Shown here in pieces: positions 9,635 through 46,583 of a stretch of 64,000 bases of DNA. The notes beneath the pieces are model-generated. The model had not been told where the DNA came from. It ran no database searches and was given only the letters and a program-made list of their open reading frames with translations. The position numbers and the translations under genes are program-made. The stretch lies in IMG/VR virus record IMGVR_UViG_3300046387_001332; one strand, written 5' to 3'. This stretch comes from a virus. Positions within the stretch are counted from its first letter, which is position 1. Every line of letters starts with the position of its first letter.

Positions 9635-10261
9635 ATGGCTAAAATGGATAAAGATGATTTAAAGTACGTTATTAAACGATCAAAAAAACTATTCGCGGGT
9701 GAAGAAATACCAAAGGTACATGGATATGAAGGTGAAAAAGAAGAAGTAAAAGTTCGTGCAGTTGGAGAAATATGGACTGACAAAGACGGAAAAGAGTGGA
9801 AACAAATTGGTGCTAATACCAAAGTTAGAACCGAAACCGTGTTTGACAAGTTAAGAAAAATAGCAAGAACCGCTCCAAATTGTCCCAAAGAAGTTTGTAC
9901 CTGTGATACTACTAAATTTTTAGATAAACGAATGGTTGCTATGAAAGGATTGTGTTTTGATTGTGTTCAAGAACATGAGCAAAAGTTAAAAGACGAAGGA
10001 AAGTATGAAGACTACGAAAAAAAGACAATGCTTGAAAACGAAAAAAGTTTTTTGTTAGATGCTAAAATCAAAATGGGTGAATCTAAACATTACATTGAAA
10101 ATGATCCTCAATTTCTAAATGAAGATGGTTCTCTTGAAAAGTGGAATATACCCGAAAAGTCTAAATTATTAGATGAACTTAATGCCGACATCACAGAGGT
10201 TGATGATCGTATTAAGAGTATTGAAAAAGAACTTGAAAAATTTTCACAATGTGATTTTTAA
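9635..10261 (+). CDS. Hypothetical protein with putative Zn-binding Cys motifs
   Basis: CPKEVCTC and CFDC followed by a coiled coil; lies directly upstream of the terminase. Confidence 0.75.
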   Translation: MAKMDKDDLKYVIKRSKKLFAGEEIPKVHGYEGEKEEVKVRAVGEIWTDKDGKEWKQIGANTKVRTETVFDKLRKIARTAPNCPKEVCTCDTTKFLDKRMVAMKGLCFDCVQEHEQKLKDEGKYEDYEKKTMLENEKSFLLDAKIKMGESKHYIENDPQFLNEDGSLEKWNIPEKSKLLDELNADITEVDDRIKSIEKELEKFSQCDF

Positions 10262-10288
10262 AAGATTCAACGATACCTTGAAACTTTT
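10260..10288. repeat. 11-7-11 palindromic site, copy 1
   Basis: AAAAGATTCAA-CGATACC-TTGAAACTTTT; 28/29 identical to 45681-45709. Confidence 0.9.
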
Positions 10289-10315
10289 TATATTATAGAA
10301 AATTAAATACATATA

Positions 10316-10322
10316 TATTTAT
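10316..10322 (+). promoter_or_regulatory. TATTTAT putative late-promoter motif
   Basis: 5 nt before the terminase ATG; no SD. Confidence 0.55.
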
Positions 10323-10327
10323 CCTTA

Positions 10328-11929
10328 ATGGCAGGAAACCAAAAAGTACCATTAAGGGAAATAATAAAACAAGAGTATACAGAGTGCTTAAAGTCACCTA
10401 TATACTTTATGAAAAAGTATTGTAAAATCCAACATCCAACACTTGGTACTATACCTTTTCATTTATATGAATTTCAAGAAAAAACTTTAGAGAGTTTTAA
10501 AGACGAACAATTTAATATTGTTTTGAAGGCACGTCAGATGGGAATATCCACACTTGTATCTGGATATGCTCTGTGGTTAATGACCTTCTTCACCGACAAA
10601 TCAATTCTATGTATTGCCATTAACCAAGAAACTGCAAAGAATATCGTTACTAAAGTAACTCATATGGCAGATTTTCTACCTTCGTGGTTACGAAGTGAGT
10701 GTACAGAAAAAAACAAGTTAAGTATGAGGTTTAAAAACGGAAGTAATATACGTGCGGCCTCAAGTAGTGTGGATGCTTCTCGTTCATCCTCTCTGAGTTT
10801 ACTTATCGTGGACGAGTGTGCGTTTATTACAAACATGGAAGATATATGGACTGCATCGCAATCTACAATTACAACGGGTGGTCGTTCTATTCTATTATCA
10901 ACTCCAAATGGTATCGGTAACTTTTTCCACAAAACTTGGGTTGGTACTATGGACGGATCAAATGACTTCAATCCAATTAATTTGCATTGGTCATTACATC
11001 CTGATCGCGATCAAAAGTGGAGAGATTTACAAACAAAAGTTCTTGGTGAAAAAGACGCAGCCCAAGAATGTGATTGTGACTTTATTAGCAGTGGTCGTTC
11101 GGTGGTAGACGCAAGTTTAATTGAGTGGTACAAAGAAAATACAATGCGTGAACCTGTAGAAAAAAGAGGAGCAAACAAAGAATATTGGATATGGGAATAT
11201 CCAAACCACAACAAAGATTATGTAGTTGCGGCCGATGTTGCGAGAGGAGATGGACGAGATAAAAGTGCTTTTCATGTATTTGATGTGGAAGGTGTGAGAC
11301 AGGTTGCTGAGTTTAAGGGTGAAGTAGAAACAAAAGATTTTGGTAATTTATTGGTTGCAGTTGCAAGTGAGTTCAACGGAGCATTGTTGGTAGTGGAAAA
11401 TGCAAATATAGGTTGGGCGGTGTTACAACAGATTATAGATAAAGGATACAACAATTTATATTACACTCAAAGAGATTATCAATACATAGATGAGTTTTCA
11501 CAACATACAAATAAATTAAATAGAATGGAGAAGAAACAGGTTCCCGGATTCACAACATCTATTAAAACTCGTCCATTGATTATCAGTAAAATGGAACAAT
11601 ATGTTCGTGAAAAAGAAGTTGAAATTGTTTCAGAAAGAACATTAGAAGAACTTTTTACATTTGTATGGAACGGACAAAAAGCAGAAGCAATGCAAGGATA
11701 CAATGACGATTTGGTTATGAGTTTATGTATTGCACTTTGGGTTCGTGATACTGCATTACGATTTCGTTCGGAAAGTATTGAAACACAAAAAAGTTTATTT
11801 GATTATATGGGAAGTACAACTAACATGGATGTTGGTAAAAATTATCGTCAAAATGGACTTGAATCAAATCCATATGAAATGAAGAACCCACGTGGAGGAA
11901 CTGAAAGTTTAGATTGGTTGCTTCAATAA
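10328..11929 (+). CDS. terL: Terminase large subunit (T4 gp17-like)
   Basis: LKARQMGIST Walker A, LLIVDECAF Walker B, STPNG, nuclease motifs ADVARGDGRD and NDDLVM. Confidence 0.96.
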   Translation: MAGNQKVPLREIIKQEYTECLKSPIYFMKKYCKIQHPTLGTIPFHLYEFQEKTLESFKDEQFNIVLKARQMGISTLVSGYALWLMTFFTDKSILCIAINQETAKNIVTKVTHMADFLPSWLRSECTEKNKLSMRFKNGSNIRAASSSVDASRSSSLSLLIVDECAFITNMEDIWTASQSTITTGGRSILLSTPNGIGNFFHKTWVGTMDGSNDFNPINLHWSLHPDRDQKWRDLQTKVLGEKDAAQECDCDFISSGRSVVDASLIEWYKENTMREPVEKRGANKEYWIWEYPNHNKDYVVAADVARGDGRDKSAFHVFDVEGVRQVAEFKGEVETKDFGNLLVAVASEFNGALLVVENANIGWAVLQQIIDKGYNNLYYTQRDYQYIDEFSQHTNKLNRMEKKQVPGFTTSIKTRPLIISKMEQYVREKEVEIVSERTLEELFTFVWNGQKAEAMQGYNDDLVMSLCIALWVRDTALRFRSESIETQKSLFDYMGSTTNMDVGKNYRQNGLESNPYEMKNPRGGTESLDWLLQ

Positions 11930-11951
11930 CAAAACAAAACGGAGAAAACAA

Positions 11952-12560
11952 ATGAAGATAACGCAAAATATACTAATAACAATGGGATTATTATTTTTTA
12001 CTGGGGGATGTGCAACGCAATCATTATTACCAACACAAGGAGTATATACTGAATCATCATTTGAAACATATACGCAAGTTGAGGGTGTCGTTGAAAATAT
12101 AGAAATTGGAAAAACAAAGTATTCTGATTTAGTCAAACTGGGGTTAGACTTAGAAAATATTCCAAATGTAAAACGACTTACTTATCTTGATGTTATGAGT
12201 AAATTTAAATTAGATAGTCCATCAAGATATACATTGTTTAACAAAATAGAACTTCCGTCTGGTGTCTTAAAAACATTGGCAGCCAGAGAAGATGGACTTG
12301 CATATGAAATAAATTTAGAAAGAATAAAAAACCAAAGAGAAGGAAGTGTCATTTTAGATATACTAAACTTTAGAAAAAATGTACACACAACTGGATGGAA
12401 AATAAGTGTATTAATATTAATGGTAGATGATACTGTAGAGTATGTATTATACTCTGGTGAAAAAAATATTGATACTTTAAAACGAGAAAGAAATCCTCTT
12501 GGTCCATTTCAAGGATTTGATGGTGGTGACATCATCGGTGCGGCTAGTGATTTAAAGTAA
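11952..12560 (+). CDS. Putative lipoprotein
   Basis: Hydrophobic signal ending LFFTGG-C; GGAGA SD. Confidence 0.7.
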   Translation: MKITQNILITMGLLFFTGGCATQSLLPTQGVYTESSFETYTQVEGVVENIEIGKTKYSDLVKLGLDLENIPNVKRLTYLDVMSKFKLDSPSRYTLFNKIELPSGVLKTLAAREDGLAYEINLERIKNQREGSVILDILNFRKNVHTTGWKISVLILMVDDTVEYVLYSGEKNIDTLKRERNPLGPFQGFDGGDIIGAASDLK

Positions 12561-12568
12561 TATATCTA

Positions 12569-12597
12569 TTGACATATATGTATATATTTTGTAGAAT
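12569..12597 (+). promoter_or_regulatory. Sigma70-type promoter upstream of portal (TATTTAT motif at 12602-12608)
   Basis: TTGACA-17nt-TAGAAT. Confidence 0.65.
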
Positions 12598-12618
12598 CAA
12601 CTATTTATAAGAATTGTT

Positions 12619-14463
12619 ATGGCAGAAGAATCAAGAACAAAGAAACTTTTTGGTGGTCTTAGAAGATTATTTTCAACTGGTGTGGTTGTAAGAAATGTAG
12701 GTGGAAAAAAATTAAAAGTTGCCGATACAGATAATTTACAATACTCAAAAAGAATACGTGACAAGTATGACCGTATGCACACATTATATAGTGATTATGC
12801 AAATGGTTTTAATAATCTTGGATTTCAAAGTGCTAGATTAGAGTTATTTAGTGATTATGAAGTGATGGATACCGATCCTATTATTTCAAGTGCATTAGAT
12901 ATTTACTCAGATGAATCAACCACTAGAAGTGAATTTGGTGAAATTCTTAAAATTACAAGTTCGGATTCTAATGTTAAAGGTATCCTTGAAAATTTATTTT
13001 ATGATATATTAAATGTTGAATTTAATTTGTGGGGGTGGATTCGCAATATGTGCAAGTATGGAGATTTTTATTTACATTTAGAAATAGAACCTGAATATGG
13101 AGTTATGAATGTAAAACCAATTTCTACATATGAAATGACTCGCATAGAAGATTCTGATCCTGAAAACCCACAACTTGTAATTTTTAAACAAGAGGGTTCT
13201 ACTAGAGCAGATTATGAAAACTATGAAATTGCACACTTTAGATTATTAGGTGATACGAATTATTTACCATACGGTAAAAGTATGGTAGAGTCAGCAAGAC
13301 GTTCGTGGAAGCAACTTCAATTGATGGAAGATGCTATGTTGATTCACAGAATAATGAGAGCACCTGAAAAAAGAATGTTTTATATTGATATTGGTAATAT
13401 TCCACCAAATGAAGTTGATAACTTTATGCAAAAAGTTATTAATAAAATGAAAAAAGTTCCGTTTGTTGATGAAAAAACAGGTGACTATAATTTAAAATTC
13501 AATATGCAAAATATGACCGAAGACTTTTTTATGCCAGTTCGTGGTGGTGATAGTGGTACTCGTATTGAAAATCTTGGTGCAATGACCTATGATGGAACGG
13601 ATGATATAGAATATATTAAAAATAAAATGATGGCTGCACTTAAAGTTCCAAAAGCATTTTTAGGGTATGATGAAAGTATAACAGGTAAAGCAACTCTAGC
13701 CGCAGAAGATATAAGGTTTGCGAGAACAATTGAGAGATTGCAGAGAATTACGATAAGTGAATTAACCAAGATTGCAATAGTTCATCTTTATTCACAGGGG
13801 TATACAGATGCTAAGTTAGTAGATTTTAGTTTGAAGTTGACCAACCCTTCAACTATTTTTGAAGAAGAACGTGTAAGAATTCTTTCCGAAAAATTAAATA
13901 CTGCACGTGATATGATTGATGCTAAGATGTTTTCAAAGAATTGGGTATATGATAAAATATTTGGATTACCTGAAAACGAAATCAATGAAATTAGAAGTGA
14001 TTTCGTGGATGATGCAAAAGAATTTTTCCGACTTGAGAGTATTCAAAATGAAGGAAACGATCCGGCCGATCCGAATCAAGCAGTAGATGCGGATGAAGAG
14101 GATAGTTGGGGTTTTGGTAAAATGGATACTCAAACCGAAAAAGATGAAGATAAAATTCATCAAAGAAAGAAAGAAGAAAAGAAACGAAAAAATGTTAATA
14201 AAAAATACGATCATCCCGATGAAAAACCTATGGGTAGAGACCCACTTGGTGCAGATGAAAGACGTGTTAATGGAAGAGATTGGGGTGATTCCCCACTTAA
14301 ACTTGAATCAGACTTAAATAAATTAGATTTATTTTTAAATAAAAAGGCAAAAAAAGAATCAGAAATGTCTAAATTAATCTGCGAAAAAACTAAAGATGAA
14401 ACACAAACTACGGAAAAAAAAGAAGTAGATTATTTAGATGATAAGAATATTATTAAAAAATAA
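12619..14463 (+). CDS. Portal protein (T4 gp20-like)
   Basis: QLQLMEDAMLIHRIMRAPEKRMFYIDIGN, EDFFMPVRG and ALKVPKAFL are gp20-family motifs. Confidence 0.95.
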   Translation: MAEESRTKKLFGGLRRLFSTGVVVRNVGGKKLKVADTDNLQYSKRIRDKYDRMHTLYSDYANGFNNLGFQSARLELFSDYEVMDTDPIISSALDIYSDESTTRSEFGEILKITSSDSNVKGILENLFYDILNVEFNLWGWIRNMCKYGDFYLHLEIEPEYGVMNVKPISTYEMTRIEDSDPENPQLVIFKQEGSTRADYENYEIAHFRLLGDTNYLPYGKSMVESARRSWKQLQLMEDAMLIHRIMRAPEKRMFYIDIGNIPPNEVDNFMQKVINKMKKVPFVDEKTGDYNLKFNMQNMTEDFFMPVRGGDSGTRIENLGAMTYDGTDDIEYIKNKMMAALKVPKAFLGYDESITGKATLAAEDIRFARTIERLQRITISELTKIAIVHLYSQGYTDAKLVDFSLKLTNPSTIFEEERVRILSEKLNTARDMIDAKMFSKNWVYDKIFGLPENEINEIRSDFVDDAKEFFRLESIQNEGNDPADPNQAVDADEEDSWGFGKMDTQTEKDEDKIHQRKKEEKKRKNVNKKYDHPDEKPMGRDPLGADERRVNGRDWGDSPLKLESDLNKLDLFLNKKAKKESEMSKLICEKTKDETQTTEKKEVDYLDDKNIIKK

Positions 14464-14525
14464 TTAGTTAAAATCTAATTTATATTTATATTTATATTCA
14501 AATATATATTTTAAAGAACATTAAT

Positions 14526-16251: not shown

Positions 16252-17088
16252 ATGTGCGAGTGTAGTTGTAATTCTCAATTAAACGAAGAAACTGATCCTG
16301 CACTTGAACAGTACAAAAAAGTTCTTAAAGACTTAGGTGATTCTGTAAAGTCTGCTCACAAATCAACTGAGGGTAAAAAACTTTCAATTGAATATTGGAA
16401 AGATGTAGTTAAACTTTTAAAAAAAGCAAAACTAGGAATTTCTATGATGGAATTGGGAATTGATGATGAAGAAGAACTAGAAACAGACCACGATGCAACA
16501 ACTAAAAAAGTAAAATCTAAATCTGATGGTGAAGCAGATTCTGAAGAGTCAGAGTCTAGTTCTGATGAAAACGAAGACGATGATACTTCTAAAAAATTAT
16601 CTGAATTGGGATTAAAAAACGAAGAAGCAAAATCAAAATCACAACAAAGATTATTTGGTATGGTTCATGCACTTAATAACGGTGAATTAAAAAAGTCAGA
16701 TGTAAGTGATGATTTATATCAAAAAATCAAAAAGATTTCTGATGGAATGACAAAAAAAGATGCAAAGAAGATGGCAAAAACAAACCATGATGATCTTCCT
16801 GAAAAAGTTCCATCAAATGAACACTATGATATACTTAATCATTTATCTATTTTGTTAACTGAAAGTGGATGTCGTGTAGGGGAATCTGATGGTGCTGAAT
16901 TTAAAATAGATAATAATAGTCGTATTCATACTATTAAATTTGACGATAAATTTTACTTAGTTTCTGAGAGTTATAATTTTGAACTTGGCACATCAAACGA
17001 TATTCAGAATGTAGTAGATACATTTGTGAAACTTACTTCAAATTCAGAAGACTCTCTTAAACACGAATATAATACATCTTTAAATTAA
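16252..17088 (+). CDS. Hypothetical protein containing a DUF3008-like segment
   Basis: AKSKSQQRLFGMVHA...MTKKDAKKMAKTNHDDLPEKV, preceded by an acidic linker and LKNEE. Confidence 0.65.
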   Translation: MCECSCNSQLNEETDPALEQYKKVLKDLGDSVKSAHKSTEGKKLSIEYWKDVVKLLKKAKLGISMMELGIDDEEELETDHDATTKKVKSKSDGEADSEESESSSDENEDDDTSKKLSELGLKNEEAKSKSQQRLFGMVHALNNGELKKSDVSDDLYQKIKKISDGMTKKDAKKMAKTNHDDLPEKVPSNEHYDILNHLSILLTESGCRVGESDGAEFKIDNNSRIHTIKFDDKFYLVSESYNFELGTSNDIQNVVDTFVKLTSNSEDSLKHEYNTSLN

Positions 17089-19742: not shown

Positions 19743-19770
19743 AATATTACACCAAAAACACTTAAAAACG

Positions 19771-19800
19771 AAAAAAGGGAAGAAAATCTTCCCTTTTTTT
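19771..19800 (+). terminator. Rho-independent terminator (possibly bidirectional)
   Basis: AAAAAAGGGAAGA-AAA-TCTTCCCTTTTTTT. Confidence 0.85.
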
Positions 19801-19843
19801 ATATATTTTTATATATTTTTAAATATTTGTTTATGTAAGTATA

Positions 19844-19850
19844 TATTTAT
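19844..19850 (+). promoter_or_regulatory. TATTTAT putative late promoter of the scaffold-capsid operon
   Basis: Motif lies between the terminator and the scaffold ATG at 19959. Confidence 0.55.
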
Positions 19851-19958
19851 CTTTTCAAAATGTTCTTACTTTATTAAGAACAACTAAAAAAAGGTTTTAA
19901 TTATTTGAAGTCCTATTAAAATGACTTTATCAAACTAATCTATAAAGGATAATTAACC

Positions 19959-22790: not shown

Positions 22791-22833
22791 GTTGTACAGA
22801 ACTCGTCTTAGTACGAAGTATAACAAAAAATTT

Positions 22834-22866
22834 AAGAGGGGTTCTTTTGAACCCCTCTTTTATTTT
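22834..22866 (+). terminator. Rho-independent terminator after the capsid gene
   Basis: AAGAGGGGTTC-TTTT-GAACCCCTCTT followed by a T-rich tail. Confidence 0.88.
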
Positions 22867-22900
22867 ATAAGATTAACTTTATTGCTTTATATTTATATTC

Positions 22901-29062: not shown

Positions 29063-29084
29063 GAATAATAAAATTCTAAAATTT

Positions 29085-29117
29085 AAAAACCCCTCTGTTC
29101 GCAGAGGGGTTTTTTTT
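29085..29117 (+). terminator. Rho-independent terminator after the sheath gene
   Basis: AAAAACCCCTCTG-TTCG-CAGAGGGGTTTTTTTT. Confidence 0.9.
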
Positions 29118-29140
29118 GTGTAGATATATATTTATTAGAA

Positions 29141-31878: not shown

Positions 31879-32128
31879 TTACAAAATTCAACTACACGAA
31901 GAAATTTTTAACCTTGCATATTATAGTCAAGGTGGTTTTACCCAAGATATTGCGTACAACCTTCCTGTCTACTTGAGAAGATTCTACTTACGAAAACTTG
32001 TTGACGTTCGTAAGAAAGAAAACGAAGAAGCAGAAAAAGCACAGGCAAAGGCAAAATCTGGAGCAAAAACTCCATCAAGACCCACCGTTTCAAAACCAAG
32101 TATGCCAAGTAAAAGAACTTATAGATAG
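31859..32128 (+). CDS. gp51-like chaperone extension, probably made by a +1/-2 frameshift from the upstream ORF
   Basis: No ATG start or SD; frame reads FFTLPTDYKIQLHEEIF...YNLPVYLRRFY from a T7 run (31858-31864). Confidence 0.65.
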   Translation, partial: FFTLPTDYKIQLHEEIFNLAYYSQGGFTQDIAYNLPVYLRRFYLRKLVDVRKKENEEAEKAQAKAKSGAKTPSRPTVSKPSMPSKRTYR

Positions 32129-32152
32129 TCTTCCATAAACTAACTTAAATTA

Positions 32153-32190
32153 CAGAAGTCGTATATTTATCAATATATACGACTTTTTGT
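32153..32190 (+). terminator. Hairpin/terminator overlapping a TATTTAT motif
   Basis: AAGTCGTATAT...ATATACGACTT followed by a T tract; TATTTAT at 32164-32170. Confidence 0.55.
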
Positions 32191-32215
32191 ATTTATAACC
32201 TACATTTAAATTATT

Positions 32216-38500: not shown

Positions 38501-39129
38501 TAGTTGATGATTCATTTTTATCAGGTATTTATTTACTCGGTGATGCAATAATATATTTAGCATCTGCGTTGGGTCAGTTACCGACTGCACCTATGCAATT
38601 ATTAGTAGATTTGAGTTCATCTGGTGGAATTGGTGGTGGGGCAGAATCCGGAGGGGGGTCAGTTGGTTCATCTGTAACACCTCCTGCAAGTGGACTTGGT
38701 GCTAATTCAGTTGGTACATCGGTTTCACCAACAACGGATGGTGCTGGTGGTGGAGGTGGGGGTTTTCTTGGAGGTCTATTTGATGGGATTTTTGGTGCAG
38801 AAGACAAAACCTCCGAGGCATCAACCGTAATTCAAACTCAGAAGGCAATAGTGATGTCAGAAGGTGGTGGGGGTGAATCTCCACAGGAACAACTTGATAT
38901 GCCAGGTGGAGTGGAAGGTGGGGGTGGTGATTCTGCACTAGCAGAGATTATTGCACAAATAGTAAATGCACCTACCCAAAACAATGCAGCTGGTGATAGT
39001 GGGGGTGGTGATAATTCAGGAGTCGAAGCAAAACTTGATGAACTCATTGGTCTAATGAAGTCAGGTAAAATCGGTGTATACATGGATGGAAGAAAAGTTG
39101 AACAACAACTTGCAAGAGTAGCACCATAA
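32536..39129 (+). CDS. Tape measure protein
   Basis: 2197 aa; coiled-coil N-half, long Ala/Gly/Leu-rich hydrophobic repeats, C-terminal VYMDGRKV; follows tube and chaperones. Confidence 0.9.
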   Translation: MADLDDIKDDLKDVVDISKMISGVMAGDVETSLGGVDDKVREIQGALSDAYETGQTFTVENTTFDTMQRMLGNSQTILANTIPLATEFTENLMNASDTAEMLTSIQDAGNQFQQQKVDLQNELTTNTGLTANKVDEIQAKLAQFSEVEKFLKSLESSVSATSNLDDAINVAYGSMIDFIDTQSTSLEKVNALHEELSRIESAVNDMSSKTISFNPVVDTSSLANASEKIKEIEGNVAGGNIMANLEITGDNEIAKLKGDLAAAQNGATALSDAAQDFRKSLIGVSTESEALSKIEDARKIANQRISEITAAMPTQKANVDTASKALEIEKARLDALPAGTLAYETQKARMEEVESTHIRAVNAVKSQQAELAEVTRFGEEYLNQQFMSLANADDIASGIEEIKGNTSDLISETSNYQNELQQSQDKLDQYGEQYRKLVKELGPTFDSAAKGIDSAKESILGIAGSIPIFGGLIENNLRGPFEAASKEITLGLGEGFKAFTQVIADKGTVTDAMTAGFGHMGKAIKDAGAALKAAFSGPVLLIGSILLLIGMAVKRFMDLEAKSLEFRQELGLAASSTKDIESAAADVNRELAGFGVTLDHAYEAANALTSELGSTMLVTQEQIKMVSMMNAGLGISAESAVGVYEVFKNLSGGSSEVAKNLSLTTVALSTAAGVPLDQVMGDIANASETVYSMSRGTGVEMAVAAIEARRLGTNIESISSAMEQQLDFESSITNEMKMASMLGRHINMNAMREAAFAGDQTRYLAEQQKVMADIGDLSEMNMYQRKSIAAAMGMEVGELMKMQTQTKALAALENGTAEQRKALAEYQKQRNAALAGETKSLAEQGMEILKQQQAENVRTRMAAAFNELVTELGSVLLPVVESAMNILVPIVSTLISGFAKLLKVVEFLMQPFIFIGNIISAITGDTEGLKKQFDGVGASLFAIGGIILGTLAIFNQGLISGVLGKIPLIGGGLKKVFESSTGFMKKHLFDPFKDGISGMFGDAEGASDGFFGKMKDKVKGMFGGAKPDVPGPLKKDGTPDMRFKANKEALKPGVPDISDDVVPDVDPKKGDKFKDFIEKFNQIDMTQVIKAAAALVILSAALYVTAKALNEFNTVEWSSLVKGTLALGILIGGLYALSQVLDKAKSSLIKGAAALLIMGAALIPAAYAFNLMGSIDFVSVLLAGIAIAGFAVMAAVLGYVAPYIIAGSVALAVLGVALIPAAIAFNLFGAVNWGSVFLGILAIGVLAVAAAFMGSVAPLIIAGAIAIGALGLSLIPFGIAAILAGAGMALIGFGIQLMVTGLDQLTMGHILMLYGLAGAILAFALLSPVVLVAGFSMLVFSAALALAGVGVMIFGFALSLVNETLKELPAAAGGLFVFAMAIAMLAPLTPLILLTAGALLFLGVAMLPLAVSMVILGAGIALLGLGFQMLRDSNAAGMLIELGFAMSFIAMMAPFITIGAAVLAVLTAVLIPFSIAVAVAGIGMMLFGIGLNLTASALEKLGANSVYLIGFAIAVSMVGAMLPLIILGAIAMVILATALIPLGVAAMIAGVGLMAVGVGMNLMASALEKMDVGKLLGLVFTFAIVGAMIPLIILGAIAMGIMASAMIPLAVAAAVAGVGLYMFASAFEILANSLTKITAESVLSLLGIGVAMMFLGAMAPFAILASLALAVFAIGLGAFGIAAAIVAPSIDILAKGMVILALSLEHIAKTAMPAIAGLTLLGLISPLLFVAAAGMAALAIPTLLFGMAAGIAAPGVVMLSGAFSLLATALSSMGETAMATIIALGVLAVFSPMLFVAAAGILALSASMLALGIGMLFISDKSASILIGIAGAIEAIGKSTSKVDLVGFVGQLLLLAASAPLLVAAGIGLLAITGPLVLFGMASLVASVGVGALAVSFNLLSVAITAIGEQGAAVIASLMGLALVAPLLLGAAAGIMAVGASLAALAVGLFFLDEDDVSILATLGEAMANIGKGAKDLDIGTFSEALTSLVDDSFLSGIYLLGDAIIYLASALGQLPTAPMQLLVDLSSSGGIGGGAESGGGSVGSSVTPPASGLGANSVGTSVSPTTDGAGGGGGGFLGGLFDGIFGAEDKTSEASTVIQTQKAIVMSEGGGGESPQEQLDMPGGVEGGGGDSALAEIIAQIVNAPTQNNAAGDSGGGDNSGVEAKLDELIGLMKSGKIGVYMDGRKVEQQLARVAP

Positions 39130-39166
39130 TCTTCAAAAAAAATATATTTGTATATTTATATTTTGC

Positions 39167-41557
39167 ATGGCATCGTGGATAACAGATATGTTCGGTGGGT
39201 TATTTGACAAAGGTGACTCAACTGATTTTGCTGAGTTCAAAACAGGAGCAGATAGGCAAAAAAGAAAACCACTCGAAAAAAGATGGTTGTTTGATAATAG
39301 TGCTTATCGTACTGCAATGCCTGCACCTATTGCTGGTTCGGCACCTGGTATAGATGAACAACATAAAAAGACTCCGACTACATGGTCGAACTCAATGGAT
39401 ACGGATAATGGCCAGGGTGTAAATTTCTTTGGGTATGGGAACACAACTAATCAAAATAGATTTAGTACAGATGGTGTTAAAATTGATACAAATAAAAACG
39501 CAACTGGACAAGTTAAAGTAAGTGGTTTTAGAACATTTAAAAAACAAATGTCCGAATCAGATTACGGATTGGGTGATACATCAGCTGCTTCAGATGGTTC
39601 GTTTTACAGAAACAATTTAGAAACAGATCGTTACGGAGCAATGTATGCTACAAATATTATTGGACCAAAAGGTGGTGGAACTAATGTTGTATCATATACA
39701 ACACTTGGTGCAGAAATTGCATTTGGTCGGGAGTCAAAAAAAGTTCAAGATAAAATTACACAAATAAATGCAGGTGACCCCAAACGAACAAATAACGATC
39801 CAACTATAACAGGAAACAACAAAGATACATTAACATCAGGGTATTCAGACTCCAATCCAGACCCACTTGCACAAGTTCCACGCAGATTGCCATCAAATGA
39901 AACCGAAAAAGATTTATTTCTTAAAAAATATTTAACTGATAAACACCAAATTATATATAAACCACGTGGAGAATTACCTCAAGGTGGTAGTTTACCAAAT
40001 AGTGCAAATCCAGTTGATGGAAAATTTCTAAGATTCAGTGAATCTTTTGAAGCATTATCAAATGTATCCCAAAACTCAACAGGAGAATCTGATCAAGGAC
40101 AACGATCATCTTTATTCAGCAGTATTTATCAAGACGGAGATGGAAAAGAACTTAAAGATATTTCAAATGATCATTCTCATTTAATTTTTTCAGACAGATC
40201 ATACAAAAAAACATTATTCAATAGAAGAAAGTTTGTTTACGATCCACCGTCTATAACGTTTGATGTAAATCAAGCAAGCATAGATGAAACACGATATAGA
40301 CGTGCAGAAACATTAAGTGGAGGAAGTGATTTCTCTGTTGATGCACAAAGTGATCAAGCATTTACAACAGACGGAACTAATGCAAACATTGATCGCAGAA
40401 TAGATTCTAGATACCACAATAAGGGTAAATTACCCGAATCTGACGAGAGGTTTCAGGGAACTCAAATTCATCCAAAAAATACTATAATGGATAGATTGGG
40501 TATTAAGAATGTAAAGGAAGATGCCAACGATGATGCAAATATAGAATTGGCACGACATCGTGATTCAACAACTAAGTACGATGAATCCTATACAACGTCT
40601 TTAAAAAACATAGGAGCAGATTCTGATAATAAAGCAATCAAGAATATTAAAAACTATAATTTATTATCAAAATTAGCAGAAGATGGTCTAACCACACCCG
40701 GAAAAAGATCAATAGGTGCGGACCCTAAATCAGGTGAGTTAACATATGAACAATTATTTAAAGATAACCCATTTAAATTAGGAAGAAAAAAAGTACCAAA
40801 CTATAATTTACCCGGATCAGTTGAAGTGGGTAATGACAATCCACGTGCTGATGCATTTAACTTAAAAGGAGTTCTTGATGCAGCCGATGCAACCAATGAC
40901 GGTTCAATGCCCGAGTGGGCAAAAGAAGATTTTGTTCCTTTGTATTTTCATGATCTAGTAAACAAAAAATATGTTCCATTTCGTTCGTTTATAAACTCGT
41001 TATCAGATCAATCAGATGCAGAGTGGACAAATACTCGTTATTTAGGTCGTGCGGATGAAGTATCAGTATATAATGGTTTTACACGAACAATGTCTATTGA
41101 TTTTAATGTTGTTGCATTTAGTATAGAAGAGTTATTACCAATGTGGCAAAGAATTAACTACATGACAGGATTAACAAAACCTGCAAAGTATACAGATAAT
41201 GGATTCATTATACCACCCTTAGTAAAATTTAATTTAGGAGACATTTATAGAAACCAACCTGTAACAATTACATCAGTTTCCACTACAATTCCACAAGAAG
41301 CAACTTGGGAACTTTTAAATGCGGACAAAAATTATGGTTCATATAAAAAGAATCAGTATATGTTTGCAAACGGAGTTATTAAAAAAGAAGGAGTAAAAGT
41401 TGCACGTTATCCGACTATGTGTACAATGAGTGTATCTATGAAGGTATTGGAAAAACAAACTCCAGAAACAATTCAAAATCATTTTGGAACACTTGTAAAA
41501 AATTCAAATGATGAAACAAAACCTGCGGAATTTAACAAAAATCTAAGTAAAGTATAA
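39167..41557 (+). CDS. Baseplate/tail tube initiator (gp48/gp54-like C-terminal domain)
   Basis: FRSFINSLSDQSDAEW..YLGRADEVSVYNGFTRTMSIDF; follows the tape measure; TATTTAT at 39153-39159. Confidence 0.65.
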   Translation: MASWITDMFGGLFDKGDSTDFAEFKTGADRQKRKPLEKRWLFDNSAYRTAMPAPIAGSAPGIDEQHKKTPTTWSNSMDTDNGQGVNFFGYGNTTNQNRFSTDGVKIDTNKNATGQVKVSGFRTFKKQMSESDYGLGDTSAASDGSFYRNNLETDRYGAMYATNIIGPKGGGTNVVSYTTLGAEIAFGRESKKVQDKITQINAGDPKRTNNDPTITGNNKDTLTSGYSDSNPDPLAQVPRRLPSNETEKDLFLKKYLTDKHQIIYKPRGELPQGGSLPNSANPVDGKFLRFSESFEALSNVSQNSTGESDQGQRSSLFSSIYQDGDGKELKDISNDHSHLIFSDRSYKKTLFNRRKFVYDPPSITFDVNQASIDETRYRRAETLSGGSDFSVDAQSDQAFTTDGTNANIDRRIDSRYHNKGKLPESDERFQGTQIHPKNTIMDRLGIKNVKEDANDDANIELARHRDSTTKYDESYTTSLKNIGADSDNKAIKNIKNYNLLSKLAEDGLTTPGKRSIGADPKSGELTYEQLFKDNPFKLGRKKVPNYNLPGSVEVGNDNPRADAFNLKGVLDAADATNDGSMPEWAKEDFVPLYFHDLVNKKYVPFRSFINSLSDQSDAEWTNTRYLGRADEVSVYNGFTRTMSIDFNVVAFSIEELLPMWQRINYMTGLTKPAKYTDNGFIIPPLVKFNLGDIYRNQPVTITSVSTTIPQEATWELLNADKNYGSYKKNQYMFANGVIKKEGVKVARYPTMCTMSVSMKVLEKQTPETIQNHFGTLVKNSNDETKPAEFNKNLSKV

Positions 41558-41558
41558 A

Positions 41559-41849
41559 ATGAGATATTCATATACCAAAAAAACTAAAAACGGAGACGAA
41601 AAAAAAATTGTAACTACCACACTATTAAATCGTGTAAAACCAAGACCAAACGATTCATTTATTAGAGTAGTAGAAAAAACAAGACTTGATCACCTTGCAT
41701 ACAAGTTTTACGACAATCCAACATATTGGTGGGTAATTGCATCGGCAAACGGAATTGCGGGAAAAATGTACGCAGATCCTGGTATGCAATTAAGAATTCC
41801 AAAAAATATAAGTGAGGTAATTCAGGATCATATTAAAATTAATACATAG
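41559..41849 (+). CDS. LysM-like baseplate wedge protein (gp53/tail X-like)
   Basis: RLDHLAYKFYDNPTYWWVIASAN...PGMQLRIP. Confidence 0.8.
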   Translation: MRYSYTKKTKNGDEKKIVTTTLLNRVKPRPNDSFIRVVEKTRLDHLAYKFYDNPTYWWVIASANGIAGKMYADPGMQLRIPKNISEVIQDHIKINT

Positions 41850-41863
41850 TAGAAAGTAATTCA

Positions 41864-44827
41864 ATGGCAATAGGTGACGATTTAATCAATAAAGCAAAAG
41901 GATTATTTCCAGAAAAAAATACAGGTAAAAAAAATATAGATAGTTTTCTAGGAGGTAATTCAAACTCGGGAGGTGGTCTTGGTGGTAAACTTGCTGGTAT
42001 GTTTGGAAACTCGTCGGACGGAGGTGCTGGTGGTGGTAATCCGTTATCGGGTGGTTTAGGAGGTTTGTTGGGAGGTGGATTTCCTCCTGGTGGAGATGGA
42101 GGTTCTGGTGGAAATGAAATAGCAGATGCATTGAAGGATACTACATCAGCAACTGGAAAAGAAAAACCATTATTTGAGTCAAAAGAAGCTGCTAAAAACG
42201 ATTTAAAAACTAAGGACGCAAAACCTCCACCAAAAGGTTCTTTCATGGACGAGACATCTAGTATTGGTGAATCAAGTGCTTTTGGTACAACCCACGTTCG
42301 TCCCTGGGTCAGAAATGAGTTTACACGACGTGAAAAAAACTTTGGAATGTATTATACAACAGGAGGAGAATTTGCAAATGATACCTCCATACAAATGAGC
42401 AATGATGCTACCTTTGATGATGAGTATAGTGAAACTATTTATAGAGGTCCAAAAGCACCTTGGATGCGTGTCATATCCAATGCGATTGGGGAAAATCCAG
42501 AAACAAGTTTACCAATCTATGGATTTGAAATGCATGGTTTTAATAGAAAAGATGAAGATGGGAATTACAAAAATGGATTCCATGAGCAATATGGATTTGA
42601 TCCAACCACCGGTCAGGGGGGTGGTAAAACATATTTGGGAAGAGGTTGGAGTGGAGAAGGAAGTGATAAATTTACACCACCATCCGTTGATCATACAATA
42701 GAAGAAGAAGATTTTAAACATCGTCCGTCTCCTGGAATTACATCGATTAAATCAGAAGATAAGGAACCTGGACGAAATTTTAGAGAAACTACGGTTACAT
42801 TTGTGGTTCATAGTCGTGATCAATTAGATTACATGGATGATTATTTTTTTAAACTAGGTATATCATGTATAGTTGAGTGGGGTTGGAATACTTATCCGAG
42901 AGAATGTTTAATTGATTCTACAAATTTAGGTAAACCTATTAAAATTGCCAAAGGTGATTATATAAAAGGAAACCCACAGAGATTAAACAAAGTAAATAAT
43001 TTAAGAGCAGATGAAGGAAAAGACCCATTATCTGATGAAGATATAGACGAGAGTGCAAAATACAGATTCGGTCCTGGAGAAGGTATGGTAGGGTATTTTA
43101 CCGATCCGGTTCTTTCTAACAATCATTTAAAAAAAGGAAAAGGAAATTATTCGTTTGCCATTGGAATTATAAATAATTATAGTTACAATTTAAGAGAGGA
43201 CGGTGGATATGATTGTGAAATCAAAATATCAACAACATCAAAAATTTCAGCATCTCTTGATAATCAAGCAACAAAAGAAAAAACAGGTGATGATGACAAC
43301 CCAGACACAAGAGTTAAAGATTTTAAATTATTTGTGGAAACAAAACTGGATGAAATTTTGGGAGGGGATGAAGACCCCCACGAATGGTATGATATGGGTG
43401 AAGATTCTATTGCAGAAATAAGTGGAGAAGTGGGTGCGATGAGTGTATCTAAAGGAAGATTTTTTCAATTTGATCAAAGTGCATCGGGTAAAGAAACATA
43501 TCATTCAGATAAAGAAGATGCATATATAACAATAGGTTATTTAGTAGATATAGTAAATAAATTTTTTACCAAAAAAACCGAGGAGACTAATATAGGTTTG
43601 TTTGAGTTTAAAGTTGATAATTCACGTTGTGTTGCACATCCAAATATTAAATCTACCGATGGTAAAGTATTATTGATACCCAATGCAATGTCTCCAAGAA
43701 GAAATCAAAAAATAAGTGAAAGAAACAGTGGAACTACTGATCAAGTAGTAACTCAAATACGAAAAGATTTACAACTTGGAAATTCTGACAATGCCTCTGC
43801 TGTATTAGCAGTTATAAATTCCGAACTTGGAAGAAAATTAACAAATATAAATACTGCCTTGAAACAATCACCACGTGATAATTTATATGAAATTTTATCA
43901 GGATATGTTCCAGCTGAATACCCGGATGCAGTAAAGCCTTTTCCTGATTTTGCAACTTTATCTGGTGGAGTTAAAACCGAGGGATATAGTGGTAGATTGC
44001 AAGATCTATATGTGAACTATAATGTGGTAAAAGATGCAGTATTAAATGGATCAAATATTACAGAAATGCTAAAAGATATTCTAAAGAAAGTTTCAGAAGC
44101 AGCCGGAGGTATTTGGGATTTTGATTTAGTTGGACCAAATACATCGGTTTCAAATGATACCAATGTACAAATAGTTGATAGAAGATATCCTGGATTAGTA
44201 ACTGCGTATGATGTACAACGAGAAGATCAAGCATATAGATTTAAATCTCATACAAAAAATAGTATAGTAAAAAGTTTATCACTTGATGTATCGTGTTCAA
44301 GTGAAGTGCAAGGTATGGTTTTGTTTGGTGAAAAGGACGCAAAAGATAATTCACAGGCCGCATTTTATGCAAGAGGACGTGAAGATAGGTTGCTTAAAGA
44401 TGCAAAGCCGGTTGTATTAAAAGGTGAACCGTCAAGTCCGACGGGTGAAGCAGAAGATGAAGAAGACGAAATAGAATCTGAAGAAAAGTTTATAGTTGCG
44501 GCTGATAATGATTGGAGTGCATTTGATTATGATATTGAAATGGTCGATCCAAATAAAAATCGTGTATTAAAAAGTATGAAACTTGATGATCATAAGTTAA
44601 ATTGCGTAAAAAACAATATGCCATTGGATGGATGTGAACTCACAATGGAACTTGATGGAATTGAAGGTCTTCGTCTGTTAGATGTGTTTGCGTGTACAGG
44701 TGTACCAACACACTATTTTATTAATGGTCATTGGAGAATACAATCTGTTGCACATGATATATCTGATAATAATTGGATAACAACAATTGGTTCGGAATAT
44801 ATACCTAGTGTAAACGGTAGTGAATAA
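41864..44827 (+). CDS. Probable baseplate hub protein
   Basis: RPSPGITSI, VEWGWN and LDGIEGLRLLDVF..WRIQSVAHDISDNNWITTI; follows the LysM gene. Confidence 0.6.
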   Translation: MAIGDDLINKAKGLFPEKNTGKKNIDSFLGGNSNSGGGLGGKLAGMFGNSSDGGAGGGNPLSGGLGGLLGGGFPPGGDGGSGGNEIADALKDTTSATGKEKPLFESKEAAKNDLKTKDAKPPPKGSFMDETSSIGESSAFGTTHVRPWVRNEFTRREKNFGMYYTTGGEFANDTSIQMSNDATFDDEYSETIYRGPKAPWMRVISNAIGENPETSLPIYGFEMHGFNRKDEDGNYKNGFHEQYGFDPTTGQGGGKTYLGRGWSGEGSDKFTPPSVDHTIEEEDFKHRPSPGITSIKSEDKEPGRNFRETTVTFVVHSRDQLDYMDDYFFKLGISCIVEWGWNTYPRECLIDSTNLGKPIKIAKGDYIKGNPQRLNKVNNLRADEGKDPLSDEDIDESAKYRFGPGEGMVGYFTDPVLSNNHLKKGKGNYSFAIGIINNYSYNLREDGGYDCEIKISTTSKISASLDNQATKEKTGDDDNPDTRVKDFKLFVETKLDEILGGDEDPHEWYDMGEDSIAEISGEVGAMSVSKGRFFQFDQSASGKETYHSDKEDAYITIGYLVDIVNKFFTKKTEETNIGLFEFKVDNSRCVAHPNIKSTDGKVLLIPNAMSPRRNQKISERNSGTTDQVVTQIRKDLQLGNSDNASAVLAVINSELGRKLTNINTALKQSPRDNLYEILSGYVPAEYPDAVKPFPDFATLSGGVKTEGYSGRLQDLYVNYNVVKDAVLNGSNITEMLKDILKKVSEAAGGIWDFDLVGPNTSVSNDTNVQIVDRRYPGLVTAYDVQREDQAYRFKSHTKNSIVKSLSLDVSCSSEVQGMVLFGEKDAKDNSQAAFYARGREDRLLKDAKPVVLKGEPSSPTGEAEDEEDEIESEEKFIVAADNDWSAFDYDIEMVDPNKNRVLKSMKLDDHKLNCVKNNMPLDGCELTMELDGIEGLRLLDVFACTGVPTHYFINGHWRIQSVAHDISDNNWITTIGSEYIPSVNGSE

Positions 44828-45246
44828 TGGACACGGACGAATATCTTAATAAAAAAATATATACTGATCTCTTATCAAGAAAAGGTTCATTGAAGGCAGC
44901 CACTTTTAGTGAGTTTCCTGAGCAGATCAAAATAAAACCAGAAGTAGATGACTACAAGAATAAATACTTTACTCGTTACTTCGTAATAAAAGCAAGTGAT
45001 AAAAATGGGGTAATTTTTGAAGTAGATGTAGCAAAGTATAATGAACTTAAAAAAAATCCCTTTTATAGATGCGAACTTTTGCGTTGGAAAATCTCAGGTG
45101 TGTATAGAAGTGAGTATGATAATGGCATTATGATAGAAGAGGGTGTAGTAGATTTTAATGAAAAGGCATTTAATCGTCTTCGCAAAAAAATGCCAGATGT
45201 ACAAAATAAAATAAAAAGTCTTACAGAATTTTATAAAGCAAATTGA
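44827..45246 (+). CDS. Hypothetical protein
   Basis: TAATG-coupled; DYKNKYFTRYFV...LRWKISG. Confidence 0.7.
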   Translation: MDTDEYLNKKIYTDLLSRKGSLKAATFSEFPEQIKIKPEVDDYKNKYFTRYFVIKASDKNGVIFEVDVAKYNELKKNPFYRCELLRWKISGVYRSEYDNGIMIEEGVVDFNEKAFNRLRKKMPDVQNKIKSLTEFYKAN

Positions 45247-45271
45247 CAAATTGAAAATATTATTATATTAT
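45243..45271 (+). promoter_or_regulatory. Sigma70-type promoter
   Basis: TTGACA-17nt-TATTAT. Confidence 0.72.
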
Positions 45272-45281
45272 ATTTTTCAAG

Positions 45282-46583
45282 ATGTTTTTGTGTATTGAAA
45301 CAAAAGAGGATGTAAAGTTATTGAGTAATACTTTAAAAAGTGGGACTGCACTTTTTTATTATTTGTTTGAACCAAACTATCATCCTGTTACTAAGAAGGT
45401 TTGTGTTGTGTTCATTTACCATTTAGAGACTGATTCTCTTTTTTTGATTTCGTTTAGTCATCCCGATGTAGTTTTAATGGATAAAAACATATTAAACTAT
45501 ATCAATAATAGTAATTGTAAAAAATACATACTAAATAAAAAAGATTCAATGTATGTCAGTGATGTCAGTTCGTATACTGATTTATTATTTGAAATGTATT
45601 GTAAGACAGGTAATTTATTTGAATACAAATTACCACTTAATAATTCTGATATTCGTTCAATACCAATAATGTTAATTAAAAAAAGTTTCAACGATACCTT
45701 GAAACTTTTAAAACCTCATTTAAACACATACGAAAATTGCAACTTTTCGAGTGATTTATGTAAAGCATTTTATGAAATTGAAAAGAATGGAATTTATATA
45801 AATCATGAAGTATATAATTTAGGATCAACTGATTTAATTCACGATAACGGATGTGTGTATAGTCAATATAACTATTATACTCCAACTACTCGTCCAAGTA
45901 ATAGATTTGGAAAAATAAACTTTGCGGCTTTGAATTCAAAGAAAAATGAAAAAGATTCCATTGAGAGTAGATTTGGTGAAGATGGTATTTTGTTTATGGT
46001 TGATTATGAAAGTTATCACTTGAGATTGTTTGCTAACCATATAAACTTTTCATTACCTGAATCTTCTTTGCATGAATATTTTGGAAAGTTTTATTACGAT
46101 AAAGAAGAGTTAACTGAAGAAGAATACGAGATGTCCAAAAAAATTACATTTAACTTAATTTACGGTGGAATCTCTGATGATGTAAAAGAACACATCCCCT
46201 TTATGGCCGAGGTTGTAAAATATGTAGAATCGTGTTGGGCATCATTTAATAAAAACGAATACATTGAAACTTGGTTATACAATCGTAAATTATACAAAAA
46301 AAACTATGATTCAATGAATTCATATAAACTTTTTAATTACTTACTACAAAGTGCAGAAACTGAAAGAAATACAAAATTAGCATTATATCTTAATGGCGAA
46401 TTTTCAAAATTAAAAAGCAAAGTAATTTTATATCATTATGATGCATTTATAGTTGATTTACATAAGTCTGAAATTTCACATACCAAAAAAATTATTGAAA
46501 AACTTACAGATAATAACAAATTTCCACTGAGAGTATATGTCGGTAAAAATTATGGAGATATGTCTAAGTTAAGTGTTTGCTAA
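45282..46583 (+). CDS. Divergent short family-A DNA polymerase
   Basis: TTRPSN, motif A DYESYHLRL, motif B KKITFNLIYGG, NYLLQS and motif C HYDA. Confidence 0.8.
   Translation: MFLCIETKEDVKLLSNTLKSGTALFYYLFEPNYHPVTKKVCVVFIYHLETDSLFLISFSHPDVVLMDKNILNYINNSNCKKYILNKKDSMYVSDVSSYTDLLFEMYCKTGNLFEYKLPLNNSDIRSIPIMLIKKSFNDTLKLLKPHLNTYENCNFSSDLCKAFYEIEKNGIYINHEVYNLGSTDLIHDNGCVYSQYNYYTPTTRPSNRFGKINFAALNSKKNEKDSIESRFGEDGILFMVDYESYHLRLFANHINFSLPESSLHEYFGKFYYDKEELTEEEYEMSKKITFNLIYGGISDDVKEHIPFMAEVVKYVESCWASFNKNEYIETWLYNRKLYKKNYDSMNSYKLFNYLLQSAETERNTKLALYLNGEFSKLKSKVILYHYDAFIVDLHKSEISHTKKIIEKLTDNNKFPLRVYVGKNYGDMSKLSVC
45681..45709. repeat. 11-7-11 palindromic site, copy 2 (perfect arms)
   Basis: AAAAGTTTCAA-CGATACC-TTGAAACTTTT inside the polymerase CDS. 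Confidence 0.9.

Follow-up and report, generated by a model that had tools for sequence, protein, structure and literature searches.

A conserved 29-nucleotide palindrome anchored before the terminase gene in a clade of uncultured marine T4-like phages

Uncultured marine T4-like phages are abundant in seawater metagenomes and, to our knowledge, their cis-acting sites (origins, packaging signals and operators) are almost unknown. Short inverted repeats that recur in a genome can belong to very different systems. The core sites of tyrosine recombinases (dif, loxP, FRT and the att core) consist of inverted arms of 11-13 bp around an asymmetric spacer of 6-8 bp. PeSL cassettes, described in T4-type phages, (promoter-early stem-loops) are numerous and lie between genes; each includes an early promoter, and they mark where indels break in hyperplastic regions (Arbiol et al. 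2010, PMC2839356; Comeau et al. 2014, PMC4122927). The phage SPP1 carries oriL, located in gene 38, and oriR, which are bound by the origin-binding protein gp38 and consist of direct-repeat arrays with an unwinding element (PMC6316719). Finally, the small terminase of T4, gp16, prefers a site at the 3' end of gene 16, in a region of ~200 bp, with synapsis of homologous sites (PMC3012670).

Here we describe a 29-nt palindrome found in a 64,000-nt stretch of viral DNA (IMG/VR record IMGVR_UViG_3300046387_001332, hereafter the window). Comparison with related sequences indicates that it is a cis-acting element conserved within a single clade of uncultured marine T4-like phages, whose genomes are estimated at ~200 kb. 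One copy, which we call the anchor, lies at the gap before terL, the gene for the large terminase subunit; the others are embedded in genes. As in PeSL cassettes, a short and highly conserved stem-loop forms a composite with a promoter between T4-like phage genes (the anchor gap, 10262-10327), and one sequence recurs at several places in the genome; unlike PeSL cassettes, the motif has a single intergenic copy, associated with a late-type TATATTTAT box, its other copies lie in frame inside genes, and the module breakpoints (for the divergent polymerase block, similarity breaks at ~39.1 and 47.0 kb) miss it. The arrangement also recalls oriL and oriR of SPP1, in that a replication gene holds one occurrence of the recognition sequence, an A+T-rich gap interrupting the virion-assembly genes holds another, and sites are kept in coding sequence, although the sites are here single palindromes that lack repeat arrays, number at least three and come without a known initiator. 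With the gp16 site of T4 the anchor shares its place at the 3' boundary of the gene before a T4-type terL, as well as a second homologous sequence elsewhere in direct orientation, whereas the motif is a defined palindrome and the upstream gene is not recognisably a small terminase; the likeness is one of position.

A sequence-only reading of the window had reported a near-identical pair of 29-mers at 10260-10288 and 45681-45709, and we verified both coordinates and the direct orientation, on the + strand. The two sequences follow the 11-7-11 palindrome AAAAG(A/T)TTCAA-CGATACC-TTGAAACTTTT and match at 28 of 29 positions, the sole mismatch being position 6 (A at 10265, T at 45686); the arms around the asymmetric 7-nt spacer are perfect at 45681-45709 and carry one mismatch at 10260-10288. 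The window contains no other long dispersed repeat of high identity; a pattern search allowing up to 3 mismatches returned no further match there, and 100 dinucleotide shuffles yielded none (chance expectation ~0). The description of the pair as bracketing the virion module is correct for the window, but it misleads because further copies of the 29-mer exist. An assembly artefact, which the same reading had allowed for, is refuted by the dozens of independent IMG/VR contigs that carry motif sequences, together with sequencing runs of 17 studies that contain all or part of the anchor surroundings (9000-12000). Contigs assembled from two DNA and two RNA runs show breaks at 10303 and starts at 10312 in this interval, attributable to de Bruijn branching at a T/C polymorphism at 10303 and to a k-1 overhang from the first variable terL codons; no joints or loose ends at the motif were listed in this comparison, which covers contigs only and is silent on RNA ends and recombination. 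Among GenBank phages, neither the region nor the 66-nt gap before terL had a nucleotide match. A match at 144768 in contig G001 and 11 of the 39 exact 17-mer matches were set aside as chance or unrelated coding matches.

The anchor (10260-10288, + strand) opens within the TAA stop codon of an ORF at 9635-10261 and closes 39 nt before the terL ATG at 10328. Its arm mismatch at 10265 is private to the window, and the form with T at position 6 occupies the same place in 19 IMG/VR contigs. The intervening 39 nt are 90% A+T and start with a run of five T; they contain the TATATATTTAT box (10312-10322, + strand), a recurrent late-promoter-like motif of the phage that precedes many genes in the window. 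The centre of the TATATTTAT box lies ~44 nt downstream of the palindrome centre, a spacing that is constant in all close relatives. From stop to ATG, the palindrome, the T-run, the A+T stretch and the box up to the terL start thus make up an ultra-conserved intergenic control region of 66 nt (10262-10327, + strand). In 10 relatives it is 95-98% identical at the nucleotide level, where the flanking coding sequences reach 72-82% and other intergenic gaps 50-75%. This degree of conservation exceeds the needs of a plain terminator and promoter. In contigs L093 and L094 the TATATATTTAT box is retained despite divergence of the remaining gap.

The genes on either side place the anchor in a recognisable context. 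terL (10328-11929, + strand) encodes a T4-type large terminase subunit (Pfam Terminase_6N, E 1.5e-11) that is 52% identical to the terminases of Flavobacterium phage immuto and Microcystis phage Mel-JY01; in immuto, a cultured relative, an ordinary GC-rich terminator and a TATTTAT box occupy the anchor's position. The ORF upstream (9635-10261, + strand) encodes a 208-aa protein that, from an alignment, combines a Cys4 zinc ribbon with a coiled coil. It matched no family in Pfam, PHROG or PDB, and no terminase family; its AF2 model is weak (pLDDT 61.6). Homologues with 24-36% identity adjoin or neighbour terL in 22 distant loci, so that the anchor abuts a gene whose proximity to terL persists in distant relatives. 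A sigma-70-like promoter (TTGACA-17-GATAAT with a TG, 11 of 12 consensus matches; 9600-9628, + strand) precedes this ORF, and promoter and hairpin may frame it as a one-gene unit. A +1 frameshift at TTT-TAA would extend the 208-aa protein by KRFNDTLKLFIL; we rejected it, since many relatives have TTC-TAA and contig L090 has a different phase.

The second copy (45681-45709, + strand) is a perfect palindrome read in frame as KSFNDTLKL inside a 433-aa gene (45282-46583, + strand). Assignment of this ORF to the family A DNA polymerases is weak but credible, with a Pfam DNA_pol_A score of 27 bits (below the cut-off), a match to PDB 8jrb at E 3.7e-4 and the motifs DYESYHLR and KKITFNLIYGG. Across several lineages at 45-54% protein identity the copy shows 0-3 nucleotide changes, while neighbouring conserved codons vary, and it keeps the rare codons TTC AAC ACC TTG CTT AGT where nearby conserved residues vary freely. 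The proposal to examine synonymous-site conservation here was informative: synonymous identity reaches 0.71-0.74, where the mean is 0.55, and places the copy at about rank 3 among the 10-codon windows listed. Contigs G011 and G012, which span terL to the polymerase, carry the anchor alone and lack the polymerase copy.

A look-alike at about 613-642, which had been described as weak, is present but proved to be a true third copy. This diverged sequence, AAAAACTTCGATGATACCTTTGAAATTTA (614-642, + strand), matches the motif at 20-22 of 29 positions and is read KNFDDTFEI, in the same reading frame as the polymerase copy, within a 312-aa ORF (320-1258, + strand) with weak DUF354 or glycosyltransferase-like similarity. 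It has the highest synonymous identity of its gene (0.86 versus 0.57; rank 1 of 305 windows). The homologous position in relatives reads GACGATACCTTTGAA, and contig G016 carries the motif there with two 1-nt insertions. Homology between the host genes does not account for the copies, the ORF at 320-1258 and the polymerase being non-homologous, and a common peptide KxF[ND]DT... was rejected as their cause because the anchor does not encode protein, and copies elsewhere are read in other frames or lie on other strands. The substitution patterns indicate that all three copies (anchor, polymerase and 614-642) are under nucleotide-level selection, and all three sit on the sense strand; the embedded two clearly exemplify how a nucleic-acid signal can be superimposed on protein-coding sequence. 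In relatives, motif-like sites with up to 7 mismatches number 6-8 per 150-170 kb, against 0.1 expected. In look-alikes that are antisense or in another frame (sites a and b), synonymous constraint is not raised.

Across the clade the consensus is AAAAGTTTC(A/G)A-CGATACC-TTGAAACTTTT. The 7-nt centre of the anchor has been inverted in place in at least two lineages (L080 and L081/L092), the polymerase copy remaining unflipped. L081 and L092 share exactly the same flipped form although their upstream genes are just 84.5% identical, which argues that orientation is immaterial at the anchor. The motif is an example of a palindrome whose centre inverts during evolution. Complementarity of the arms is 8.68 within copies and 8.71 between copies (p 0.63), without statistical covariation: the arms are conserved by sequence, not by co-varying. 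At the anchor alone, a statistical comparison does not place the loop above the arms in conservation; the asymmetric centre is conserved as much as they are. Arm changes compatible with G-U pairing on the sense strand occur in L043, L044, L045, L051, L085 and L089, and a compensatory arm pair in L090/L094. At the level of sequence, the pair belongs to a small family of sites, and the control region before the terminase gene holds its anchor. The element is precisely defined, by its consensus, three selected copies and the 66-nt ultra-conserved control region before terL, and is therefore testable with a 29-mer probe.

The explanation that we place first, tentatively, is a sequence-specific DNA recognition site for a putative phage protein, of the origin or packaging-site type. 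Such a protein would read the palindrome and its GATACC centre, either as a duplex or as an extruded hairpin, and we infer that its binding would mark the starts of a DNA transaction: origin firing, as at oriL and oriR of SPP1, or terminase recognition, as in the pac region of T4 gene 16. The anchor would be the master copy, placed at the junction of the sigma-70-type gene and the late terL promoter and forming one functional unit with the adjacent 90% A+T stretch and the promoter, and the two further copies would have been written into the coding sequence of the glycosyltransferase-like and polymerase-like genes. The conserved, non-co-varying arms fit a palindrome read by protein, and the tolerated flip at the anchor fits duplex DNA better than an RNA loop. 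The arms resemble the parS half-site GTTTCA, yet neither ParB_N nor a ParB-like protein was found in five relatives, and a ParB/parS system was rejected.

Observations bearing on a DNA site fall on both sides. The pair is non-random and recurs in many independent contigs, the 66-nt gap is conserved well beyond its flanking genes and other gaps, synonymous conservation is in excess at both embedded copies, relatives are enriched in motif-like sites, and the terL-proximal upstream gene persists at 24-36% identity; all of these favour it. Proteins are also known to bind DNA sites within genes or in a gap of the late region, precedents being oriL in gene 38 with oriR in SPP1 and the gp16 site of T4. 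Counting against it, the constrained copies are confined to the sense strand and sites a and b are unconstrained, which also fits an RNA element, and the same direction is taken by the G-U compatible changes with the L090/L094 pair and by the GC-rich terminator at the same spot in immuto; in addition, one lineage has lost the polymerase copy, and no binding protein was found, the 208-aa neighbour being without a family and having a weak fold model.

The main rival, possible though somewhat unlikely in our estimate, is an RNA terminator or regulatory hairpin. The anchor would then be either an intrinsic terminator of low strength or an element that stabilises 3' ends; it would close the one-gene unit 9600-10289 and shield the late terL promoter. 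The intragenic copies would serve as attenuators or as sites for an RNA-binding regulator (nut/boxB-like or translational-operator-like). Like Rho-independent terminators and lambda boxB hairpins, the motif combines a hairpin and a T-run after a stop codon, and it recurs as nearly the same hairpin at a few points within transcription units. The anchor hairpin starts at the stop codon and is followed by T5 and a promoter box, at the very place where immuto has its canonical terminator and TATTTAT box. Folding is predicted at -7.3 kcal/mol for the anchor and -8.9 kcal/mol for the polymerase copy (z -2.2 and -4.2), and the sense-strand location of the constrained copies, the six contigs with G-U compatible changes and the compensatory pair point the same way. 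However, the 11-bp stem, followed by T5 in the anchor and T4 in the polymerase copy, holds only 2 G-C pairs, unlike the GC-rich terminators elsewhere in the window, and the anchor was not called by a terminator scan. Only the anchor lies at the end of a transcription unit, with a stop codon and a promoter box after it; the other two copies are internal to ORFs, and a terminator within two genes would be costly. The motif matched no Rfam family, the arms lack statistical covariation, and the flipped loop persists, which makes a loop-specific RNA reader unlikely. The 9-mer ACGATACCT has a strand polarity of 23 versus 1 across five contigs, which we discounted as evidence: its occurrences are partly coding and non-hairpin, homologous positions are counted in several genomes, and sites a and b are unconstrained.

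A more ambitious form of the DNA-site explanation, which we consider improbable, would make the motif the recognition hairpin of a new DNA-transaction system, with multiple origins, or packaging or nicking sites, that an extruded CGATACC-loop hairpin would define. If this were true, the in-place loop flip would be a trace left by hairpins extruding in vivo, and sites written into protein-coding sequence would be held there by selection on synonymous positions.

Two further explanations seem to us quite improbable, to an equal degree. In the first, a dimeric phage regulator would time terminase expression from the palindrome, which it would bind ~40-55 nt ahead of the late terL promoter; the gene-internal copies would be secondary sites. 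The fixed distance between the perfect palindrome and the TATATTTAT box in all close relatives and the independence of orientation would suit such an operator, whereas the embedded copies have no TATATTTAT box downstream, conservation of an asymmetric centre to the same degree as the arms is atypical of a site for a homodimer, and no regulator was found. In the second, the motif would serve no function of its own: template switching would maintain a quasi-palindrome in perfect form, and short-patch gene conversion would spread it to part-similar sequences, in the manner of the recombination-promoting PeSL-type regulatory cassettes of T4-type phages, which are recombining composites of terminator and promoter (PMC4122927). 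Loop flips and arm 'corrections' are classic outcomes of template switching; a coding sequence in contig G006 has become a 24-nt exact match where relatives are only partly motif-like (G008: AAAAACTTTCAACGCATCGTAGAG); and diverged look-alikes are free of synonymous constraint. Such a process leaves unexplained both the 95-98% conservation of the full 66-nt gap and the fact that two embedded copies rank at the top for synonymous constraint despite deep divergence, and the breakpoints of the polymerase block lie away from the motif.

A pair of tyrosine-recombinase core sites (dif/loxP/att-like) that excises or resolves the 35-kb segment, suggested by the 11-7-11 inverted arms, the identical asymmetric spacer and the direct orientation in the window, is very improbable: Pfam scans for tyrosine (PF00589) and serine (PF00239) recombinases found none in the window ORFs or in the contigs of five relatives (95-170 kb; control genomes positive), leaving a host Xer enzyme as a candidate, the partner is not obligatory (G011 and G012 are single-copy), a third copy exists, excision would split an intact, conserved polymerase gene, and the spacer of the anchor alone is flipped in L080, L081 and L092, which would turn excision into inversion and yet persists. 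We found no support for a recombination site by which the virion genes would be excised, and the tempting but wrong picture of an excisable virion module can be removed; of the functions first offered for the pair, the recombinase site fails, while a protein-binding site and an RNA hairpin are both still live. A weak look-alike in the portal gene (12968-12996, - strand; 8 of 29 positions mismatched) is probably not a member of the motif family; it recurs in contigs G001 and G008 within a well-conserved coding region.

The two 29-nt palindromes, each with 11-nt arms around an asymmetric 7-nt centre (CGATACC), were confirmed on the + strand: an anchor copy, AAAAGATTCAACGATACCTTGAAACTTTT, at 10260-10288 and a polymerase copy, AAAAGTTTCAACGATACCTTGAAACTTTT, at 45681-45709, which are identical at 28/29 positions, as the sequence-only reading had described. 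They are the only matches at ≤3 mismatches in the window (shuffled sequences gave none) and the sole long high-identity dispersed repeat across the 64 kb. Every gene of the window lies on the + strand, and the G+C content is ~33%. Pfam recognized a Rad50-like protein, portal, prohead protease, gp23 capsid, sheath, gp19 tube and baseplate proteins; PrkA, a DUF444 protein (YeaH-like) and SpoVR, followed by a DNA methylase; gp32, RecA/UvsX, a 5'-3' exonuclease, a DnaB-like helicase and ribonucleotide reductase; and the polymerase-like gene. A 2197-aa protein had no Pfam match. Among named phages, Flavobacterium phage immuto and Microcystis phage Mel-JY01 are the closest (terminase identity 52%), and a nucleotide-level search of GenBank phages gave no match. 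Since IMG/VR relatives reach 152-170 kb at an estimated completeness of 75-84%, the genome size is probably near 200 kb. The phage was detected in seawater metagenome runs belonging to many studies.

The anchor starts within the TAA stop codon of ORF 9635-10261 and ends 39 nt 5' of the ATG of terL, which encodes a T4-type large terminase. An exact search of IMG/VR with the 17-nt core returned 39 loci (19 pre-terL, 8 in the polymerase, 1 at a new site in a relative and 11 unrelated). Across the 19 pre-terL loci the stop-to-ATG gap is near-invariant; variation is seen in the gene upstream and in the opening codons of terL. Nucleotide identity to ten relatives is 95-98% in this gap (10262-10327), 72% in the upstream gene, 82% in terL and 50-75% in other intergenic gaps. 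The gap consists of the palindrome, T5, a 39-nt stretch of 90% A+T and a TATATATTTAT box, which is found 5' of many window genes and is likely a late promoter. Because a separate sigma-70-like promoter (9600-9628) precedes the upstream gene, the palindrome appears to lie where a one-gene early-type unit meets the late terL unit; in phage immuto, a conventional GC-rich terminator and a TATTTAT box occupy the corresponding place. Judged from an unbiased set of terL relatives, the element is found where terL identity is 83-98% and is missing at 55-60%. Arm position 10 has changed from A to G in three more distant carriers (loci L085, L089 and L095) and the arms of L090 and L094 hold a compensatory pair (AGA...TCT), while the CGATACC centre is unchanged in distant carriers with arm changes.

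The polymerase copy is translated in frame as KSFNDTLKL, residues 134-142 of a 433-aa protein (ORF 45282-46583) with weak yet coherent family A polymerase signals. Among orthologues gathered by peptide seeds lying outside the motif, five (L044, L045, L047, L051 and L052) retain it with 0-3 changes in proteins only 45-54% identical to that of the window, and the 17-nt centre TTCAACGATACCTTGAA is exact in L053 too. Motif-keeping lineages preserve the codons TTC AAC GAT ACC TTG AAA CTT and AGT, and use varied codons for the neighbouring conserved residues DIRSxPIM. At 45681-45709, ten-codon windows on the motif have a synonymous identity of 0.71-0.74, compared with 0.55 on average for the gene, which places them about third of the windows listed. 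L043 (71% protein identity) has a palindrome reduced to weaker G-T pairs through two synonymous substitutions and one replacement. The motif is entirely absent from a polymerase lineage reading KHFK(K/E)LC, two contigs of which (G011 and G012, spanning terL to polymerase) carry the anchor only. The gene lies in a divergent block with breakpoints at ~39.1 and 47.0 kb, away from the motif. This stretch (39167-47020) is a hyper-divergent or exchanged block: its six genes, including the polymerase-like one, have a protein identity of only 31-56% in L011 and L013, and its flanks (32536-39129; PrkA, 47059-49155) are 89-92% identical.

What had been noted as a weak look-alike at 613-642, in ORF 320-1258, proved to be a third copy (614-642). 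Relatives read GACGATACCTTTGAA at the homologous place, G016 reads AAAAGCTTTCGACGATACCTTTGAAATTTTT (the motif plus two single-base insertions), and the ten codons beginning exactly at the copy rank 1/305 in synonymous identity (0.86 vs 0.57; nine non-redundant homologues, 66-69% identity). The polymerase-like protein and the product of ORF 320-1258 are not related to each other. The whole contigs of five relatives were also scanned at a cut-off of 7/29 mismatches, and further look-alikes exceeded the expectation from order-2 Markov simulations, with 6-8 sites in each of the three largest contigs (150-170 kb) vs ~0.1 expected. They are mostly intragenic, in several frames and in both coding senses. 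Excess synonymous constraint was not seen at either of two recurrent look-alikes, one (site a) within a 299-aa gene and the other (site b, missing from the window) within the methylase gene. Contig G006 has a 24-nt exact match (locus L082, G006:52000-58500, core 3161-3177) on the opposite strand near the start of a 286-aa gene, read as EIKRFQGIVETFEN; the orthologues of G008, G016 and G001 have no such match and resemble the motif only partially there. We take the look-alikes to be decaying or newly made copies, their function being unproven.

In three pre-terL gaps (L080, L081 and L092) GGTATCC or GGTATCG replaces CGATACC, the centre being inverted in place, together with the inner arm position in L081 and L092. 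These two loci have the identical flipped form despite upstream genes only 84.5% identical, so it is stable. Template switching in a hairpin would be expected to yield such in-place inversions. In genomes with a flipped anchor, the polymerase and third copies keep the usual orientation. From the flips it follows that the anchor's orientation is irrelevant.

Overall, the motif is a real, well-defined element, and the evidence is consistent with sequence-specific recognition. T4-type phages are known to carry repeated regulatory palindromes and terminator-promoter cassettes (PeSLs; PMC4122927). The motif departs from these in occurring in few copies, in having two of them embedded in coding sequence with synonymous constraint, in the ultra-conservation of its 66-nt master region and in tolerating a flip. 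No Rfam family matched it. Both fallback proposals of the sequence-only reading, a binding site and an RNA hairpin, are supported as readings, evidence of DNA type and of RNA type being present. We tentatively favour a DNA recognition site, at somewhat less than an even chance. In favour of this, the arms are conserved as sequence, with no measurable covariation; the site would work in either orientation, as the flips suggest; and the entire A+T-rich gap is kept along with it. Protein-bound DNA sites within coding regions and in a gap of the late region have precedents in SPP1 oriL/oriR (PMC6316719) and the T4 gene 16 site (PMC3012670). The first candidate binder is the 208-aa product of ORF 9635-10261, which has a Cys4 zinc ribbon (C83, C88, C107, C110) and a C-terminal coiled coil and belongs to no family; since its gene adjoins or neighbours terL even in relatives with as little as 24% identity, it is a candidate for a small terminase or a packaging factor.

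An RNA hairpin is somewhat less likely than a DNA site, though the anchor is placed and built like a terminator, all three constrained copies lie on the sense strand, and several changes are G-U compatible, with one compensatory pair. A promoter operator is improbable, and so is a self-propagating quasi-palindrome with no dedicated function. The headline proposal of a recombinase site is very doubtful: searches of the window and of five relatives' large contigs gave no tyrosine or serine recombinase, and, with a dispensable pair and one partner that flips, the conserved function is not recombination between two fixed sites. No ParB was found in five relatives. A frameshift reading was rejected on comparison of the relatives' sequences, and a shared-peptide reading on the contexts of the motif.

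Besides the DNA recognition site favoured here, several features of the region are of note. A window-private T-to-A change in the anchor makes GATTC, a GANTC site, at 10264-10268. The window encodes an N6/N4 DNA methylase at 51900-52658; the methylase gene of relatives holds a diverged motif copy (G001 140115, G008 149620, G007 9939), which that of the window lacks. Canonical terminators (GC-rich hairpin and T-run) lie 3' of major structural genes (19743-19958, 22791-22900, 29063-29140, 31879-32215) and are quite unlike the A+T-rich palindrome. Promoter-like boxes, both sigma-70-like (TTGACA-17-GATAAT/TAGAAT; 9600-9628, 12569-12597) and late-type (TATATTTAT, e.g. 10312-10322, 29118-29132, 39145-39160), finish merely 6-20 nt 5' of start codons; the leaders would be very short or absent, with no visible Shine-Dalgarno sequence. 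Finally, ORF 8338-9201 is mosaic in relatives (L006, L020, L033 and L081), some of which contain in it a segment like residues 120-190 (DUF3008) of ORF 16252-17088.
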